Source: Minisyncoccia bacterium
GTDB lineage: Bacteria > Patescibacteriota > Minisyncoccia > Phycocordibacterales > DATDWN01
NCBI GenBank assembly: GCA_049296855.1
Contig: JBAQTF010000010.1
Span: 22,094 to 86,093, forward strand
Direction of reading: 5' to 3'
Length of the DNA stretch: 64,000 nt
Below are positions 35,551-43,782 of this stretch, piece by piece (position 1 is the stretch's first letter; every line of letters begins with the position of its first letter). Made by a program: the position numbers and the translations under genes. The notes below the pieces were generated by a model that was not told the origin of the DNA, did no database searches, and saw nothing but the letters and a program-made list of their open reading frames with translations.

Positions 35551-35563
35551 ATTCGCTTCAATG

Positions 35564-35651
35564 CGGACAGAGTGAGATTCGAACTCACGGTACCAATTAA
35601 GGTACGGCGGTTTAGTAAACCGCTGGTTTAAGCCACTCACCCATCTGTCCA
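35564..35651 (-). tRNA. Class II tRNA-Ser-like gene with a non-canonical anticodon loop (UUACUAA) and an 8-nt T-loop; possible pseudogene
   Basis: Acceptor GGACAGA/TCTGTCC with discriminator G, D-arm GGT..ACC, anticodon stem GCGGT/ACCGC with loop TTACTAA, long variable arm GTACC-ttaattg-GTAC, T-arm GTGAG-TTCGGAAT-CTCAC. Confidence 0.45.
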
Positions 35652-35845
35652 ATTTCTTCATATTAACACAAGATTTACATTTACGATCGCCTATAAAAAT
35701 GCTAATGTGTGGCTAAGTAAAATCAGTTTTAGATGGCTCAGATGCTAGGCGCTGACGAAGCTTGTGACCAAAGTGTATACGTATACTCTGCAGGAACAAC
35801 TGGAGTCAGCAACGACGCAGATGAATCATATCAAACTGATTTTTT

Positions 35846-35934
35846 GGAGACGTGTCAGAGTGGTCTATCGTACCTCTTTGCTAAAGAGGTGGAGGCTTTA
35901 AACCCTCCCGATGGTTCGAATCCATCCGTCTCCG
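35846..35934 (+). tRNA. tRNA-Ser (anticodon GCU)
   Basis: Acceptor GGAGACG/CGTCTCC with discriminator G, anticodon stem-loop CCTCT-TTGCTAA-AGAGG, long variable arm TGGAGG...CCTCCC, T-arm GATGG-TTCGAAT-CCATC. I could not fold a clean D-arm by hand. Confidence 0.7.
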
Positions 35935-37547
35935 CCCGAAACCCTTTTTCGTCCTACAAGAGCTTCAAAACCTTCCTTTAAGCTATATTTTAAGAGCTTT
36001 CTGTCTTTAATGACTATTTCGGAAAAAATCAAAGTTACAATTTCTCGCTTTTCACTATCAAGTGCGTGGTCAAAATAAATACTGGCATTTTTTATTAACT
36101 CTGAGAATGTAATTACGAACTTCAACATATCTTGAGCACTCTCTCCATAAACCTTAATTTCCTCCTCTATAGCAATTCTAGAGCCATTTAAACGGGTTTC
36201 TTCAGCAACTATATCTTCTGGTACCATTGCTTTCGTTCTCATTAAAGTAATTCTGTTTTCTGTAAGGAACTCAATGTTCTTACTAACCTCTCTATGTTTA
36301 TTATATAAGTCACTTAACTTCTTATCCCTTTGCCCTGCTATTATCGCTAGTTCTTTTTTTGCCTTAGATTCAATATCAGCTATTTCAGGGTCAGTAAAAT
36401 AAAGACCATCAATAATATTCTTAAACATAGAGGTTAATTCCTTTTCTGAAATATTTACATCTGGATTGTCACAGTCTAATTTACATCTTGATCTGTAGTA
36501 GGTATATCCTTTTTGTGGGTAAGGGCTGTAACATCTACCACAAGTACAATTAGCCATTCCACGATAAGCAAAAAATGGTTTATCAATATAACGAATTGTT
36601 TTTGAACGTTTTTTAAGAACTTCTTGAACTTTAATAAATAATGCACTATCAATTATAGGTTTATGTGCAGTGCTCGTTATATATTCATTGTGACCAATCT
36701 TAACTTTTCCTATGTAAAAAGGATTACTCAAAATTGATTCAACCGACTTATGATCAATCGGTCCAGAGACCTTCGGTAGCAAATCAAAATCAATTCCATT
36801 TTCCTGTTCCTCTTTAGTTCTCTTTCTTCTCTTGGGTCTTTTTGTTAAACCATTTTTTGTTGCCCATTTTGCAAGCTGCATAAAACTCCATTCTCCAGTC
36901 GCATACATTTCAAAAAGTCTTTTTATTAAAGGTGCTCTCTCGGGATCAATTGGTTTATTATCGGAGCCTCTATTAAGATAACCCAATGGAACGCTATATA
37001 TACATTTTCCTTCAGCTCTTAATTTTTCTTGACTGTATCTAACTTTTTCACTTATAACATCAGAATAATACTCAGCGAACATTCCTTGTACGTTCATATT
37101 GACCTTGCCTCCACTATTCTTATCAAACTGCATATCTGTGAATCTGATATCACATCCTTGCTCAACCAATCTCTGAATTATTACATTATCTTGGGCGTTT
37201 CTACTTGCTCTATCCCAGCAAAGAATAACAACCCCTTTAATTTTCTTGTCTTTCAGTAGTCGGATAAGTTTTACAAACTTTGGACGAAGGACACGATTAC
37301 TAAAAATGCCGTTTTCACCAATATCAAAATCATCATCTTCTTTATATCCAGAATGACTTTCATTTATAACTCCCTTTTCACAAAACCTTTCAATTGTTAG
37401 ATCAGCTATCGGGAGATTGTGTTTTCTCGCATATTCTTGATTAAGACTGCTCTGATATGTCAGAGAGTTTTTTTGATTCTCTTTATCATCAGTACTCTTT
37501 CGGTTATAAATCAAATATTTGTCTTTGTATTGATCTCCAATTTCCAT
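35898..37547 (-). CDS. Large serine recombinase (resolvase-domain integrase)
   Basis: 549 aa. N-terminal catalytic region LIYNRKSTDDKENQ, recombinase and zinc-ribbon regions with several Cys. The 3' end of the ORF overlaps the 3' end of tRNA-Ser(GCU). Confidence 0.85.
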   Translation of the reverse strand: MEIGDQYKDKYLIYNRKSTDDKENQKNSLTYQSSLNQEYARKHNLPIADLTIERFCEKGVINESHSGYKEDDDFDIGENGIFSNRVLRPKFVKLIRLLKDKKIKGVVILCWDRASRNAQDNVIIQRLVEQGCDIRFTDMQFDKNSGGKVNMNVQGMFAEYYSDVISEKVRYSQEKLRAEGKCIYSVPLGYLNRGSDNKPIDPERAPLIKRLFEMYATGEWSFMQLAKWATKNGLTKRPKRRKRTKEEQENGIDFDLLPKVSGPIDHKSVESILSNPFYIGKVKIGHNEYITSTAHKPIIDSALFIKVQEVLKKRSKTIRYIDKPFFAYRGMANCTCGRCYSPYPQKGYTYYRSRCKLDCDNPDVNISEKELTSMFKNIIDGLYFTDPEIADIESKAKKELAIIAGQRDKKLSDLYNKHREVSKNIEFLTENRITLMRTKAMVPEDIVAEETRLNGSRIAIEEEIKVYGESAQDMLKFVITFSELIKNASIYFDHALDSEKREIVTLIFSEIVIKDRKLLKYSLKEGFEALVGRKRVSGGDGWIRTIGRV

Positions 37548-38490: not shown

Positions 38491-38727
38491 TGGCGTTTCC
38501 TCTTTTTGTCATTTAAGCATATTTCATTTATAATCAGGTTACAACTGAATATACCGTTAGCCTAACCCTAGAAGGTAACTTCTAGGTATGGCACAAAATC
38601 GCACGATACAAGAAAACCCGTTATTAGGGCGTATCGTGCGTTATGCAGGGAAACTTGCATAGAGGTCTTCGGACCTTCCTAGTAGCGGGCTTTGTTGTGT
38701 CTGGCTACTAGTTATAACTTAACTAGT

Positions 38728-39936: not shown

Positions 39937-40341
39937 ATGAAAGTATACAATATCACTAAAGGTCAGCTAATTACTTTGTGGATTTTTGGGGGAATAGGTA
40001 TGTTTTGGGCATTGGTTCAAGCTGATAGTTACTCTACAGAAGACAGAGGTATATTTTTCTTATGGTTCATACCTTTAGTTTTAATTTTTTACACTATTGG
40101 ATGGAAAAACTATAAGAAAAATAAACCAAGTAATTCATACGAGCATCTTTCTGAAGATGATCTGTATGAAGAAGTAAAAAACTTAGTAATAAAGGAACAA
40201 AAAGCTTCAACTTCTTTTATTCAGAGGAAACTGGGAATTGGTTATGCTAGAGCTGCTAGATTAATGGATGTTTTAGAAGAAAATGGGGTTATAGGAGAAG
40301 GCAGAGGTGCAGAGCCAAGAAATGTGATAATTAAGGAGTAA
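39937..40341 (+). CDS. Membrane-anchored protein with a C-terminal FtsK-gamma-like winged-helix domain
   Basis: Two N-terminal TM segments. C-terminus ASTSFIQRKLGIGYARAARLMDVLEENGVIGEGRGAEPR resembles FtsK gamma (...LQRRLRIGYNRAARLIE...). Confidence 0.55.
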   Translation: MKVYNITKGQLITLWIFGGIGMFWALVQADSYSTEDRGIFFLWFIPLVLIFYTIGWKNYKKNKPSNSYEHLSEDDLYEEVKNLVIKEQKASTSFIQRKLGIGYARAARLMDVLEENGVIGEGRGAEPRNVIIKE

Positions 40342-40403: not shown

Positions 40404-40441
40404 AAGGCTAGATTTTCTAATCTTGCCGTGCTTAACTTAAT
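40404..40441 (+). repeat. 38-bp direct repeat, left copy
   Basis: AAGGCTAGATTTTCTAATCTTGCCGTGCTTAACTTAAT. It has one mismatch to the copy at 43179-43216. Confidence 0.8.
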
Positions 40442-40450
40442 GCAATTACA

Positions 40451-40921
40451 ATGAAAGACCTCCTGCAACAATTACTCTGGAAAACATTGGGATATGGTGT
40501 TGTACCAACAATAATCCTATGGAATGGCGACCATAGCCCAAAGACTTGGTTAATAACACTTCTTATCGTATTGGTAGTAAGCTCTCTTACTACTTATTAT
40601 TCTCTCTTAGATAAGAAAGAGGAAAAATATAAAAAAGATATATTTGCTATTCAACAAAAAGCACAGGCTGAAGTTACTGAAGCAACAAAGCTAAAAGAAA
40701 GAGCTGTAGTAGAACAAGAAATCTGGAAACAAACAATGCTAGAAAGAAATGCGGGGTTTAAAACGCTCCTGTCATATATAAGTTATTTTGAAAAATTAAG
40801 AGATGAACCAATAACACATTATCTACATACCAAAAAACATCCAGCTCCGTCTGCTGGAGAAGTCGTGAAGGAACAAACGAAAAGGCGTAGAGAAGCAGAT
40901 TTTCTAAACAAGAGAACATAA
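40451..40921 (+). CDS. Hypothetical membrane protein with a coiled-coil region
   Basis: 156 aa; TM segments at the N-terminus. Confidence 0.45.
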   Translation: MKDLLQQLLWKTLGYGVVPTIILWNGDHSPKTWLITLLIVLVVSSLTTYYSLLDKKEEKYKKDIFAIQQKAQAEVTEATKLKERAVVEQEIWKQTMLERNAGFKTLLSYISYFEKLRDEPITHYLHTKKHPAPSAGEVVKEQTKRRREADFLNKRT

Positions 40922-40933
40922 GCTCTTATAGAA

Positions 40934-41677
40934 ATGTACGAACAGTACGCACCCTTTCTTGTTGATCTAAAGGATGATATCCCTGACGTTGATGATGTAA
41001 AAATATTTGAAGAATATAGTGAAGAAGAAAGACAAGATGAGGTTGTTAATTATTTAACTAAAGAAGAGTACAGAAAACTTCCATCTGTAGAGAGAAATCA
41101 ACTTGCTCTAGATAGATTTTGGGATAGACCAAAATCTAAATGGCTTATAGGTAAATTATATGAAAGATACGTAGGCTTTTTATACGAACAGAAGGGTTAT
41201 AAAGTAAAGTACTTTGGAATAGACGAGAGATACGAAGATATGGGTAGAGATTTGATTTGTCACAAAGGTGATGAGACATTGATTATTCAATGTAAAAATT
41301 GGGCTGAGTTTAGAACGATATATGAAAAACATATTTTTCAACTTTTTGGAACAATCTTTGAATATAAAGAGTCACATCCAAATGAAAAAGTGAAAGCCAT
41401 CTTTTGTACTACAACTCAACTTTCACCACTAGCAAGAAAGATCGCAACCACATTAGGGATTGAACTATATGAAAACTTCAAGTTTGATAAAAAATATCCT
41501 TGCATAAAATGTAATATAAGCACTCAAGGCGACCAAAAGATCTACCATCTACCTTTTGACCAAAAATATGACGAGACTAAGATTGATAGAAAAGGAGAGA
41601 TGTATTGCATCACAGTAAAAGAAGCTGAGGAGGCAGGATTCAGAAGAGCATTCAGATGGCAGGGAGAAAAAGTGTAA
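40934..41677 (+). CDS. Mrr-like restriction-endonuclease-fold (PD-(D/E)xK) protein
   Basis: ERYEDMGRDLICHKGDETLIIQCKNW matches the Mrr_cat pattern (G-x-D ... E/Q-x-K); C-terminal CxxC... Confidence 0.6.
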   Translation: MYEQYAPFLVDLKDDIPDVDDVKIFEEYSEEERQDEVVNYLTKEEYRKLPSVERNQLALDRFWDRPKSKWLIGKLYERYVGFLYEQKGYKVKYFGIDERYEDMGRDLICHKGDETLIIQCKNWAEFRTIYEKHIFQLFGTIFEYKESHPNEKVKAIFCTTTQLSPLARKIATTLGIELYENFKFDKKYPCIKCNISTQGDQKIYHLPFDQKYDETKIDRKGEMYCITVKEAEEAGFRRAFRWQGEKV

Positions 41678-41695
41678 TATTAAAAGTATTATTAA

Positions 41696-42901
41696 TTAAT
41701 AGAGCCATTCTAATTTTATTCTCCAATCGTGCCTATTTACTAAATTTATATCATTAGTAATTCCAGTTGAACGAGGATCAGCCATCATAAGGCTAATGCT
41801 GAATGTTTCCTTGATATTATTTGCATCACCCTTCCAAAGAACTTTGCTTATAAACTTTCTAGTCAAAGATTGTAGTTTATAAAGATTTTTCGTTATTAAT
41901 TCAATTTCCTCTTTTTCTAATGGAGTAAATCTGCCGTGAGCTATATTACTTCTCAAATCGTATAAGACATATTCTTTTCCACTCTTTCCTTTAATCTTTT
42001 TCTTAAAAGCCTTAAATGCATTGCTTTCTTTACCAAGAACAGCTTCTAAAACCTTTTTAGTCTTACTGTAATTACCTATTTCCTTATGGAATAGCTTTCC
42101 TAAAATCTTATTGAAAAAGTCTTTAACGAACTTCTTTTCTGCTTTCTGAAAACCATAATCTTTACTAGCTTCCATCTCACCATCGTGCAAATTCAAGGCT
42201 AGTTTTTCTAATGCGAAGTAATAACTCAAGAAACTTAAAAGAGGATTCTCATTAGATAGTCTATTTCCTTCTTGATACCAACTAATAACATTATCAAGTA
42301 AAACGCTGTCGTCTCCTTGAAATTTACGTACGTAGTCTTCAGCGATTCTAGTATCTTCGTCTGTTAAATTAATCATTCCACCACCCCCTCTACTACTATG
42401 CGGATATTTAAGAAACCAATCATATTTGGCATTAATTCCGTACGCTAATCTGTAAAGAAAGATGTTGATTAGATCCAGTCCTTCCTCTATTGCTTTAATG
42501 GTAATTTCTGGAATTTCTAAAGAACAATCATATACTTGCAAGTTTGCTTCAGTATTATTCTCTAAATTAACAACTTCAATCTTTCTCATATGTAGGTGAC
42601 CTATATCGTGGCTGACTCCACTGTCAGAGTAAGTTGTAGAGAAATTGCCTTTAACTATAAACTCTATAACAGGAAATCCTGTAGCTAACATATATTTTAA
42701 ACAACCTGTTATTCTATGATCTGTATCTTCGGTTACCATAGATCTTACTTTTTTATCTAATGCATCTATATCACCTAAATATAAAAGAGGTCTCCATTCT
42801 CCATATGGATTATATCGGGCAGGTATTGGTCTCGGATAAACAGGTAAGTCTTTGGTTTCTTCCATAACATCAATACTGTACCTATTTGGGTTTTCCATCA
42901 A
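41696..42901 (-). CDS. Hypothetical 401-aa protein with an R-x4-H HEPN-like motif
   Basis: ...EYVLYDLRSNIAHGRFTPLEKEE... carries R-x4-H. The same local motif ([IL]R[NS]xIAH[EG]) occurs in the protein at 17173..18582. Convergent with the Mrr-like gene. Confidence 0.5.
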   Translation of the reverse strand: MMENPNRYSIDVMEETKDLPVYPRPIPARYNPYGEWRPLLYLGDIDALDKKVRSMVTEDTDHRITGCLKYMLATGFPVIEFIVKGNFSTTYSDSGVSHDIGHLHMRKIEVVNLENNTEANLQVYDCSLEIPEITIKAIEEGLDLINIFLYRLAYGINAKYDWFLKYPHSSRGGGGMINLTDEDTRIAEDYVRKFQGDDSVLLDNVISWYQEGNRLSNENPLLSFLSYYFALEKLALNLHDGEMEASKDYGFQKAEKKFVKDFFNKILGKLFHKEIGNYSKTKKVLEAVLGKESNAFKAFKKKIKGKSGKEYVLYDLRSNIAHGRFTPLEKEEIELITKNLYKLQSLTRKFISKVLWKGDANNIKETFSISLMMADPRSTGITNDINLVNRHDWRIKLEWLY

Positions 42902-43163
42902 CTCTTTCCCAGATATAAGCCATAACTTTCACATTTCCATCTACAATTGCCTTTCTAAGCAACTGTTCAACATAGAACCTTCTATCAATAGAAGCACTGA
43001 CCTCTGGATTTTTTACTCTATTTAGAGCCCTTATCAATTTAGTATTAAAATTTATTGATCCAGAAACTTTTCCTCCTAGTTTTCTGTGTCCAATAAGAAA
43101 GCGACCCCTTGAATCTCTTTCCACTAAATCTCCACTATTTCTTGTGGTTGACTCTATTTGCAT
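42882..43163 (-). CDS. Small hypothetical protein, possibly DNA-binding
   Basis: 93 aa, basic; no firm motif. Confidence 0.35.
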   Translation of the reverse strand: MQIESTTRNSGDLVERDSRGRFLIGHRKLGGKVSGSINFNTKLIRALNRVKNPEVSASIDRRFYVEQLLRKAIVDGNVKVMAYIWERVDGKPK

Positions 43164-43178
43164 ACGGATTATCTTAAA

Positions 43179-43216
43179 AAGGCTAGATTTTCTAATCTTG
43201 CTGTGCTTAACTTAAT
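43179..43216 (+). repeat. 38-bp direct repeat, right copy
   Basis: AAGGCTAGATTTTCTAATCTTGCTGTGCTTAACTTAAT. Confidence 0.8.
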
Positions 43217-43314: not shown

Positions 43315-43782
43315 ATGGCCACATACAAACACACTCAAATTGGTTACCTGATGCTGGTTATTACACTGACCGTGCTGATGCTTTTCGCATGGGTTTATAT
43401 TATGGCCTCAGCCGAGCCTCCTTCGGTCGACTCTGGCCCAAATTTTGCCATTACTGCCATAATGGTATTAATTCTGTTTATTCTTACATCGTTTACCACG
43501 CTGACAACGTCGATTGATGAAAACTATCTTCGGATCAAATTTGGCTATGGAATTTTTGCCAGGAAGTTTGCACTTAATCAGATAGCGAGAGTTCAATCAG
43601 TAAAGAATCACTGGTACTACGGATGGGGAGTGAAAGTCTGGTTCTGGCCGTATATGTGGATTTACAATATTTCCGGTTTTGATGCAGTTGAAATAATTAT
43701 GAGAAACGGAAAAATTTATAGAATAGGGACAGATACCCCCGGCGAACTAGAAACTGCAATCAAGCAAGCTATAAATACCTAA
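43315..43782 (+). CDS. Two-TM membrane protein with a C-terminal beta-rich (PH-like) domain
   Basis: 155 aa. TM segments at the N-terminus. Confidence 0.45.
   Translation: MATYKHTQIGYLMLVITLTVLMLFAWVYIMASAEPPSVDSGPNFAITAIMVLILFILTSFTTLTTSIDENYLRIKFGYGIFARKFALNQIARVQSVKNHWYYGWGVKVWFWPYMWIYNISGFDAVEIIMRNGKIYRIGTDTPGELETAIKQAINT

Follow-up and report, generated by a model that had tools for sequence, protein, structure and literature searches.

A stop-interrupted membrane-anchored Mrr gene and an unpaired HEPN accessory gene at the probable right end of a tRNA-Ser serine-recombinase element in Patescibacteria

Results

The analysed window is a 64-kb stretch of a Minisyncoccia contig, in which a tRNA-Ser gene, a large serine recombinase (LSR) gene, a LOOT RNA, a membrane-anchored Mrr-type nuclease gene (TM-Mrr), a convergent gene for a 401-aa protein with a HEPN domain and a gene for a 93-aa basic protein follow one another, the last three genes being flanked by two copies of a 38-nt repeat (Table 1). 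The 3′ end of the LSR gene overlaps the 3′ part of tRNA-Ser, and a tRNA/LSR overlap occurs in more than 12 related loci (designated by L numbers), the same overlap as in the window being found in L009, L011, L013, L027, L037, L039, L052, L062 and L082. The LSR, with its Resolvase and Recombinase domains, bears out an earlier note on this DNA, which had placed the repeat-flanked genes inside a serine-recombinase element. The LOOT RNA recurs in five related loci (L009, L011, L013, L176 and, twice, L017), and an LSR lies less than 8 kb from TM-Mrr in 10 of the 15 CPR loci that have sufficient flanking sequence on either side. The window thus has the layout of an element type, namely an LSR overlapping a tRNA 3′ end, a LOOT RNA and TM-Mrr in conserved order, and this layout is standard because single elements (L009, L011 and L013) carry both LOOT and TM-Mrr, by which two tandem elements joined at repeat copy 1 are also ruled out. 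In L011 and L012, a 24-nt tRNA-derived direct repeat (att) brackets the region from the LSR to TM-Mrr and DUF5681. At the right end of the window's element, neither a tRNA-Ser remnant nor an att repeat was found above the shuffled background, and this end is presumed, being placed by analogy only.

Table 1. Features of the element and of its presumed right end, in window positions
Feature	Position	Strand	Remarks
tRNA-Ser(GCU), integration target	35845..35937	+	ARAGORN; Rfam tRNA 44 bits
Large serine recombinase (LSR), 549 aa, element integrase	35898..37547	-	Pfam Resolvase 6.4e-15, Recombinase 2.4e-17
LOOT RNA (Rfam RF03000), head of the element's rightward operon	38559..38677	+	Full-length match, 83.7 bits (gathering score 46.4)
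Direct repeat copy 1	40404..40441	.	9 nt 5′ of the TM-Mrr start codon; palindromic core 40406-40427
TM-Mrr, single interrupted gene	40451..41677	+	Mrr_cat 3.6e-9; sunset domain NF051437 3.1e-7
401-aa two-domain protein	41696..42901	-	N-terminal alpha/beta domain, C-terminal HEPN domain, conserved C-terminal tail
Partial third repeat copy	42195..42212	.	17/18 match, left half only, inside the 401-aa gene
93-aa basic DUF5681-like protein	42882..43163	-	Aligns end to end to its L011 DUF5681 counterpart (pairwise E 2e-6)
Direct repeat copy 2	43179..43216	.	One C-to-T change relative to copy 1

TM-Mrr comprises a TM anchor (one hydrophobic segment, residues ~32-53), a coiled coil, an Mrr_cat PD-(D/E)xK nuclease domain and a C-terminal 'sunset' domain. 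The 247-aa ORF at 40934-41677 matches Pfam Mrr_cat (PF04471) with an E value of 3.6e-9 and 37.2 bits (cut-off 21), and the D...QxK motif lies in GRDLICHKGDETLIIQCK, the D and QCK of which are invariant in the homologue alignment, in agreement with the earlier assignment of an Mrr_cat-like nuclease. The small membrane protein that had been listed as a gene of its own proves to be the N-terminal part of the same protein, as the ORFs 40451-40921 and 40934-41677 share a frame and are split by a single TAA (40919-40921), at a position that is Gln in every close homologue ('...NKRT*ALIEMYEQY' versus '...NKRTQAIIEMYEQY', the asterisk being the stop), with a possible restart at ATG 40934. Of the "exactly four genes" counted between the repeats, four ORFs do lie where they had been placed, but the first two are one gene. 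The stop recurs in an independent contig of another sample, 100% identical over 8,060 nt, and recoding of TAA as its cause is ruled out, since TAA terminates other genes of the window (e.g. 40339-40341). The HMM match above the gathering threshold and the D...(E/Q)xK motif are in place here, and an intact full-length gene is not; judged from its sequence, this copy would be either a pseudogene or expressed as two pieces.

TM-Mrr homologues are single proteins of 360-420 aa and number more than 4,286, the best 120 of them showing 63-89% identity, while nucleotide similarity between the window and 175 related loci is restricted to TM-Mrr and the LOOT region; on both grounds TM-Mrr is a conserved gene of the element family and not cargo. 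Its neighbours vary and include DUF4238, DUF4145, AbiTii, DpnI, Fic, reverse transcriptase and SocA genes, a ~150-aa Zn_ribbon_Top1 partner being frequent (30 of 125 neighbours). At the other end of the segment, the 93-aa protein had been described as small and basic; basic it is (19 K+R against 10 D+E), and more exactly it is a divergent DUF5681-like protein, its counterpart in L011 being above the Pfam threshold and in the same terminal position. Since the start of the 401-aa gene overlaps the 93-aa gene, which is the element's resident end gene, by 20 nt, the two genes form one operon and are probably co-transcribed.

The 401-aa protein has an N-terminal alpha/beta domain (residues ~40-180) with invariant E80/D125/K165 and a C-terminal HEPN domain (residues ~200-356) with an invariant R317-x4-H322, followed by the conserved tail. 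The sequence LRSNIAHG, which had been read as a HEPN signature, is this R-x4-H motif: R317 and H322 are invariant among 100 diverse sequences (27% mean identity) and in an independent set of 70, and besides the conserved R-x4-6-H motif the domain has the predicted fold of a HEPN protein, a four-helix up-and-down bundle. The AlphaFold model was built on the 100-sequence alignment, the 11 close homologues alone having given a pLDDT of 44.8, and the superfamily model from the larger alignment is of high confidence. The profile and structure searches that had been recommended for both proteins gave Mrr_cat above threshold for the one; for the other, PADLOC returned HEPN-level matches below threshold, and Foldseek with the whole 401-aa chain gave nothing significant in PDB or BFVD. 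A relationship of the N-terminal domain to the Mrr domain is ruled out (hhalign probability 0.1%). The superfamily includes a long form of ~650 aa with an N-terminal extension of ~250 aa, to which the products of the genes lying upstream of the 401 family (298 aa, 93 aa and HTH) were compared without any correspondence being found.

Genes of the 401 family adjoin LSR genes in L001-3, L005, L008 and L176, in one further context (L004) the 8 kb upstream contain no LSR, and the family is absent from viral contigs. Tightly 5′ of each 401-family gene lies a small gene not homologous from one context to another (HTH_3 of 68 aa, or genes for 298, 177 or 93 aa). This arrangement bears on the idea that the 401-aa protein serves the element and not defence, e.g. 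as the toxin of an addiction pair in which the small upstream protein is the antitoxin, or by processing RNA for the element. We consider this unlikely, as the upstream genes are homologous neither to each other nor to known HEPN antitoxins (none has an MNT domain), and most LSR/LOOT/TM-Mrr elements have no 401-aa gene, which is therefore not needed for element function.

The earlier note had combined the nuclease and the HEPN protein into a two-gene defence or toxin-immunity system on a repeat-bounded mobile cassette. Both domains are confirmed, the genes adjoin convergently with a gap of 18 nt between flanking direct repeats, and a HEPN-type DUF4145 (L011) or AbiTii (L174) gene precedes TM-Mrr elsewhere, so that HEPN/Abi genes recur as a class. 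However, an Mrr-like ORF was found in none of seven other independent contexts of the 401 family or superfamily (E <= 10, six-frame translation), and a 401-like gene in none of 160 TM-Mrr loci (80 CPR and 80 viral), an outcome that the note had itself named beforehand as telling against the pair. Moreover, TM-Mrr is kept across thousands of elements beside many different neighbours, the stop codon breaks it here while the HEPN gene is intact, the two genes run convergently and are not co-transcribed, and the repeats enclose the resident end gene too. The pairing is thus largely refuted by the lack of co-occurrence, and a dedicated Mrr and HEPN system is highly improbable. The two genes are positional neighbours, not functional partners or a dedicated defence pair, and the proposed pair therefore merits no entry as a new system.

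The two repeat copies are in direct orientation and 37/38 identical, as first reported, and are the only two in the 64 kb at <=3 mismatches, where 0 are expected (100 shuffles). Their edges are sharp, and the sequences flanking the two copies are unrelated. The core is an imperfect palindrome of 22 nt, GGCTAGATT-TTCT-AATCTTGCC, with inverted arms of 9-10 nt and a spacer of 4-6 nt, and the identity runs 14 nt past the palindrome on one side only. The two convergent transcription units each have one copy at their 5′ edge. Copy 2 lies at the element's presumed right end and begins 15 nt before the start codon of the 93-aa gene, which is on the opposite strand. The partial third copy codes for ALEKLAL in the first HEPN helix pair of the 401-aa protein, and its chance probability is ~1e-3 by our own estimate.

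Between the copies lie 2.7 kb with TM-Mrr, the 401-aa HEPN gene and the DUF5681-like end gene, and no recombinase gene. The 38-mer or its flanks are absent from the 175 related loci (2 Mb), IMG/VR and GenBank phages, and no analogous flanking repeats were seen among the other 401-family and TM-Mrr loci examined. The search for an empty site, as had been advised, yielded neither such a site nor a circular form of the segment, two Logan contigs having exactly the occupied form. Taken as a cassette boundary, the repeats do flank the genes, but they also enclose a conserved element gene and the end gene, no recombinase lies between them, and neither an empty site nor an analogue in relatives was found. 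The repeat is recent, because its copies are 37/38 identical, and it would be a duplication private to the element of the window.

Two functions of the repeats were weighed. As recombination sites, they would make the 2.7-kb segment excisable or exchangeable, through a recombinase in trans or a short-homology single crossover. The sharp edges with unrelated flanks, the recent and direct copies, the resemblance of the core with its arms and spacer to a recombinase core site, and the att direct repeats that the element family makes elsewhere (24 nt, L011/L012) are consistent with such sites; but the half-sites do not reappear at the LSR/tRNA junction, the segment has no recombinase and includes a conserved element gene besides cargo, neither an empty site nor a circle was found, and the 38-mer is absent from the related loci and IMG/VR. 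We consider this function unlikely.

A duplicated operator, in which a dimeric protein of the element, e.g. the 93-aa DUF5681-like protein, binds the palindrome and co-regulates both convergent units, is doubtful as well, if slightly less so. A palindrome can serve in either orientation, the centre of this one is 34 nt before the TM-Mrr start codon and 28 nt before that of the 93-aa gene, a promoter-like TTGCCG-18-TACAAT overlaps copy 1, and the 93-aa protein has the basic charge noted above. On the other hand, promoter-like matches in the region are no commoner than in shuffled sequence, relatives have no equivalent, DUF5681 proteins are not known to bind DNA, and the direct 14-nt identity past the palindrome on one side argues for duplication and not for selection on a symmetric site. 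Direct orientation fits neither a promoter shared by two convergent operons nor a simple operator, since these 14 bases lie on one side only. Most likely, the repeats are either a duplicated operator (protein-binding site) or a scar left by Campbell-type recombination through short homology.

Discussion

Based on the gene identities, folds, conservation, contexts and repeat established above, we consider it probable that, as a whole, the region is the right end of a tRNA-Ser LSR element in which a broken TM-Mrr stands beside an unpaired HEPN accessory gene and the repeats are private. The region would be the right-hand end of an integrative element of ~7.4 kb, inserted at tRNA-Ser by its LSR in a CPR (Patescibacteria) host. 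The family to which this element would belong combines a recurrent LSR and a highly conserved TM-Mrr, beside which lie variable accessory genes; a LOOT RNA often stands at the head of the rightward operon, and some members end in a small DUF5681-type gene. The 401-aa gene would then be the accessory gene of this element copy.

Taking ApeA and similar single-chain HEPN defence proteins as a model, we infer RNase activity, a defence role and regulation for the 401-aa protein, in which a putative HEPN ribonuclease domain would be fused to the N-terminal domain. The N-terminal domain and the conserved tail may hold the putative RNase in check until, for example, phage infection or stress triggers it; the protein could then cut RNA (tRNA, rRNA or mRNA) and halt growth, and such an arrest would give abortive infection or addiction to the element. 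As a single-protein effector of abortive infection, the 401-aa superfamily is a reasonable candidate. A further-reaching proposal, that the repeats are functional recombination sites of a swappable right arm of LSR/LOOT elements and that, in addition, the 401-aa protein is an effector with two active sites (E/D/K and HEPN) founding an undescribed defence family of ~266 sequence clusters, is quite improbable as a joint claim; if true, the swappable arm would be a mechanism by which CPR mobile elements exchange accessory and defence genes as nested cassettes.

The favoured reading, of a right element end with an unpaired HEPN gene, carries a caution, namely that where a mobile element has nuclease domains side by side, one may belong to a conserved gene of the element and the other to cargo. 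It also sketches, for the first time, a family of very small serine-recombinase elements that integrate at tRNA genes in CPR bacteria, of which our literature searches found no description, and gives the orphan LOOT motif a genomic context. An unnamed HEPN superfamily is gained as well; its model is of high confidence, and besides the invariant R-x4-H it has an E/D/K triad as a second invariant feature.

Among known systems, tRNA-targeting LSR integrative elements with defence 'moron' genes at one end likewise have the LSR end overlapping the tRNA target and a variable accessory region opposite, whereas the present family is very small (5-8 kb), CPR-specific and marked by a recurrent LOOT RNA and TM-Mrr. 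With the Mrr-family (Mrr_cat) type IV restriction nucleases, TM-Mrr shares the Pfam Mrr_cat domain above threshold and D...QxK, but a membrane anchor and coiled coil replace the winged-helix DNA reader at its N-terminus; it also differs in its C-terminal 'sunset' domain, in being kept in LSR elements and phage-like contigs, in its canonical partner, the ~150-aa Zn_ribbon_Top1 protein, and, in this copy, in its stop codon.

For the 401-aa protein, the Pfam families HEPN_MAE_28990 and HEPN_RiboL-PSP, together with MauJ, which have R-x4-H in common with it, give weak but consistent matches over residues ~206-345 in 4-5 of 11 members, all below the gathering thresholds and leaving the N-terminal domain and C-terminal tail outside. 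No MNT antitoxin, as in HEPN-MNT toxin-antitoxin systems, was found beside the gene, the neighbour being DUF5681-like here and HTH_3 or unassigned proteins in the other contexts. DzbB of Dazbog (PADLOC PDLC03836) matches the protein below threshold, at HEPN level (E 4.8e-3); among close family members, 8 of 11 match the C-terminal part of its profile with their C-terminal ~130 residues (best E 2.2e-6), and of the 70 wider relatives only 4 match. Moreover, only positions 200-327 of the 341 in the profile align, which is short of a full-length match, and the DzbA (DUF262) partner was found neither among the neighbours in the window nor in any other 401-family context.

ApeA, a single-protein HEPN anti-phage system, cleaves the tRNA anticodon loop after a ligand binds a pocket distant from the active site (bioRxiv 10.64898/2026.01.26.701840). 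Like the 401-aa protein, ApeA (PDB 9hxm) is a single chain in which a large non-catalytic or sensor region precedes a C-terminal HEPN RNase domain, and its 619 aa are similar in size to the ~650-aa long form of the superfamily. It is also the sole PDB sequence match of the superfamily profile, a non-significant one in the first HEPN helix pair (E 0.58, 54 columns), and no ApeA-type Pfam family was found for the protein or its family at E <= 0.1. The 401-aa protein is set apart from ApeA by its own N-terminal domain with the invariant E/D/K triad and by its carriage on a CPR LSR element.

Results

TM-Mrr is one gene split by an in-frame stop codon

Two ORFs at 40451-40921 (156 aa) and 40934-41677 (247 aa) share one frame with a single TAA (40919-40921) between them, and they are one gene, here termed TM-Mrr for its membrane-anchored Mrr-type nuclease product. 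Homologous genes encode one protein of 360-420 aa with '...NKRTQAIIEMYEQY...' at the point where the window has '...NKRT*ALIEMYEQY...'. The TAA takes the place of a conserved Gln codon and divides the product into a membrane piece of 156 aa and a nuclease piece of 247 aa; four codons 3' of this stop is an ATG. The identical in-frame stop occurs in an 8,060-nt contig of another sample, which is 100% identical to the window; therefore, it is not an error of the window's assembly alone. The 'exactly four genes' counted in the earlier note between two direct repeats are thus right as ORFs, but make up three genes, of which one is broken.

A single strongly hydrophobic segment is present in the N-terminal piece, and a highly charged stretch comes after it. 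The call of an Mrr_cat-like nuclease was borne out by a Pfam Mrr_cat match above threshold (E 3.6e-9) and the Mrr-type D...QxK motif, and the C-terminus matches the NCBIfam 'sunset' domain. More than 4,286 homologue matches were found, in hosts including Woesebacteria, Falkowbacteria, Magasanikbacteria, Nomurabacteria and Paceibacterota, and 162 IMG/VR viral contigs carry relatives. With 63-89% identity among the best 120 matches, conservation is unusually high across distant lineages of the CPR (Patescibacteriota).

TM-Mrr belongs to a tRNA-integrating element family

In the closest relatives and many other CPR loci, a large serine recombinase (LSR) gene lies a few kb from TM-Mrr, its 3' end overlapping a tRNA gene (Glu, Arg, Gly, Asn, Asp, Ala or Gln; Ser in the window), and this distance was at most 8 kb in 10 of the 15 CPR loci, counting only loci with at least 8 kb of flank on both sides. 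The placement of the repeat-bounded segment inside a serine-recombinase element, as proposed before, agrees with this recurrent layout. In two related loci, L011 and L012, a 24-nt tRNA-derived direct repeat encloses the LSR gene through a small DUF5681 gene directly after TM-Mrr. A LOOT RNA (Rfam RF03000; 69-89 bits in the window and relatives) always stands at the head of the operon diverging from the LSR side, and at the nucleotide level the window resembles 175 related loci only in TM-Mrr and the LOOT region. Other TM-Mrr neighbours vary (DUF4238, DUF4145, AbiTii, DpnI, Fic, reverse transcriptase, SocA and others), the commonest being a Zn_ribbon_Top1 protein of about 150 aa with a topoisomerase-type C4 zinc ribbon (30/125 neighbours). 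Because the family is very large and its LSR/tRNA context consistent, TM-Mrr belongs to the conserved genes of a mobile-element family rather than to its defence cargo.

At the related locus L017 (1-9152), two LSR genes (532 and 600 aa) flank one TM-Mrr gene and the locus has two LOOT RNAs, which suggests tandem or nested elements of this family. Just outside the L011 element, a 43-nt unit repeated three times in tandem (L011:10344-10472) overlaps the 5' part of a tRNA-Val; the units look like partial tRNA duplications and are possibly scars of repeated integration.

Features of the window and LOOT RNAs of related loci
Feature	Location	Strand	Remarks
Second tRNA-Ser	35563-35650	-	Rfam 54.5 bits; divergent from tRNA-Ser(GCU), 195 nt away
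27-nt inverted repeat	35719-35745 / 35817-35843		between both tRNA-Ser genes
tRNA-Ser(GCU)	35845-35937		overlapped by LSR 3' end
LSR gene	35898-37547	-
LOOT RNA, full length	38559-38677	+	Rfam RF03000, 83.7 bits
134-aa protein	39937-40341	+	FtsK-gamma winged-helix domain, E 4.4e-26; predicted membrane N-terminus
38-nt repeat, copies 1 / 2	40404-40441 / 43179-43216	direct	37/38 identical
401-aa HEPN-type protein	41696-42901	-
93-aa protein	42882-43163	-
LOOT RNA in relatives	L009:5543-5664; L011:5438-5565; L013:3021-3137; L176:5437-5552; L017:2671-2803 and 11225-11341		Rfam RF03000

ARAGORN assigns the second tRNA-Ser the unusual anticodon ACT. In each of two different runs, a Logan contig stops at exactly 43664, within a 155-aa ORF (43315-43782), and the longer of the two contigs has its other end at 35605, within the tRNA-Ser(ACT) gene. 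These ends do not match the presumed element ends; they probably correspond to branch points of the assembly graph, which may mark variation between strains. The 134-aa FtsK-gamma protein gene, just upstream of repeat copy 1, has a relative in the same operon of the related locus L082.

The Mrr-type and HEPN genes are not a pair

The proposed two-gene Mrr and HEPN defence system did not survive comparison in either direction. The other independent contexts of the 401-aa family (L001-3, one locus in three samples; L004; L005; L008; L177; and L176, a long form) contain no TM-Mrr-like ORF in six-frame translation at E <= 10, and no 401-like ORF occurs in 80 CPR and 80 viral TM-Mrr loci. An LSR gene does stand beside the 401-family gene in L001-3, L005, L008 and L176. 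A tightly coupled small upstream gene also recurs, its identity differing among contexts (68-aa HTH_3; 298, 177 and 93 aa). In the window this is the gene of the 93-aa protein, which can be aligned over its full length with the product of the DUF5681 end gene in L011; the gene is therefore a resident of the element. Read most simply, the 401-aa gene is accessory cargo in the element's variable right end, with TM-Mrr on one side and the DUF5681-like end gene on the other.

The 401-aa protein represents a new HEPN family

A word-indexed search of 5.8 billion sequences returned only 11 relatives, while an exhaustive profile search gave 266 cluster representatives of the superfamily. Most members are about 650 aa (P0132-P0218, about 600-680 aa) with the 400-aa module C-terminal; the N-terminal extension of about 250 aa, which the window's short form lacks, has no Pfam match except a weak MutS_III in a single member. 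In a 100-sequence alignment with 27% mean identity, only D125, K165, R317 and H322 are invariant, and thus the R-x4-H pair, from which HEPN had been called, is conserved throughout the superfamily; E80, F81 and W208 join them in an independent alignment of 70 sequences. Matches to HEPN_MAE_28990, HEPN_RiboL-PSP, MauJ and PADLOC DzbB are weak but consistent among members. Foldseek gave no match for the whole chain. The alpha/beta domain at the N-terminus, which bears the E/D/K triad, is unassigned and showed no relation to the Mrr domain.

The 38-nt repeats are real and recent

The two 38-nt direct repeats were found as described, with one mismatch. Their boundaries are sharp, the flanks of the two copies share no similarity, and the 64-kb window holds no further copy at up to 3 mismatches, none being expected by chance; the repeats are real and recent. 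Repeat nucleotides 1-24 contain an imperfect palindrome, GGCTAGATT-TTCT-AATCTTGCC. Copy 1 stops 9 nt short of the TM-Mrr start codon and copy 2 begins 15 nt from the 93-aa start codon on the opposite strand, so that the palindrome lies about 30 nt upstream of the start in both convergent units, which fits an operator preceding each unit. However, the copies stay identical for 14 nt beyond the palindrome, on just one of its sides and in direct orientation, a pattern suggestive of duplication. The core also resembles the core site of a recombinase, but as recombination sites the copies would enclose a segment that has no recombinase and holds a conserved element gene, and their half-sites were not found at the LSR junction. 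No relative of the 38-mer was found in 2 Mb of related loci, IMG/VR or GenBank phages, nor an analogous repeat in related elements, and the independent contigs show the occupied form only. The cassette reading is unproven.

A third, partial copy (42195-42212; 17 of the repeat's first 18 nt, the left half, in the same orientation) falls within the 401-aa gene, coding ALEKLAL of the HEPN domain; at a chance probability that we estimate at about 1e-3, it is unlikely to be fortuitous.

Discussion

The by-product of this analysis, an LSR, LOOT RNA and TM-Mrr element family at CPR tRNA genes, for which we found no description in the literature searched, is more interesting than the HEPN protein. Through its recurrence in tRNA-integrating LSR elements, the orphan LOOT RNA motif gains a clear setting on mobile elements.

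The HEPN protein stands for a family that is new and unnamed, within a well-known kind: HEPN RNases encoded by accessory genes of mobile elements. It differs from DzbB, to which the match is limited to the C-terminal third of DzbB and occurs in 4 of 70 wider relatives, and whose DUF262 partner is absent from the window and all 401-family contexts. Its HEPN fold and catalytic pair, both confirmed, resemble those of single-chain HEPN defence proteins such as ApeA, the sole PDB sequence match of the superfamily, at a non-significant E of 0.58. In ApeA, a ligand binds outside the active site, in a separate pocket, and tRNA anticodon loops are then cleaved (bioRxiv 10.64898/2026.01.26.701840). By analogy, the 401-aa protein would most likely be a latent RNase, whose activity the N-terminal domain and the conserved tail may gate, and which could act in abortive infection or element stabilisation.
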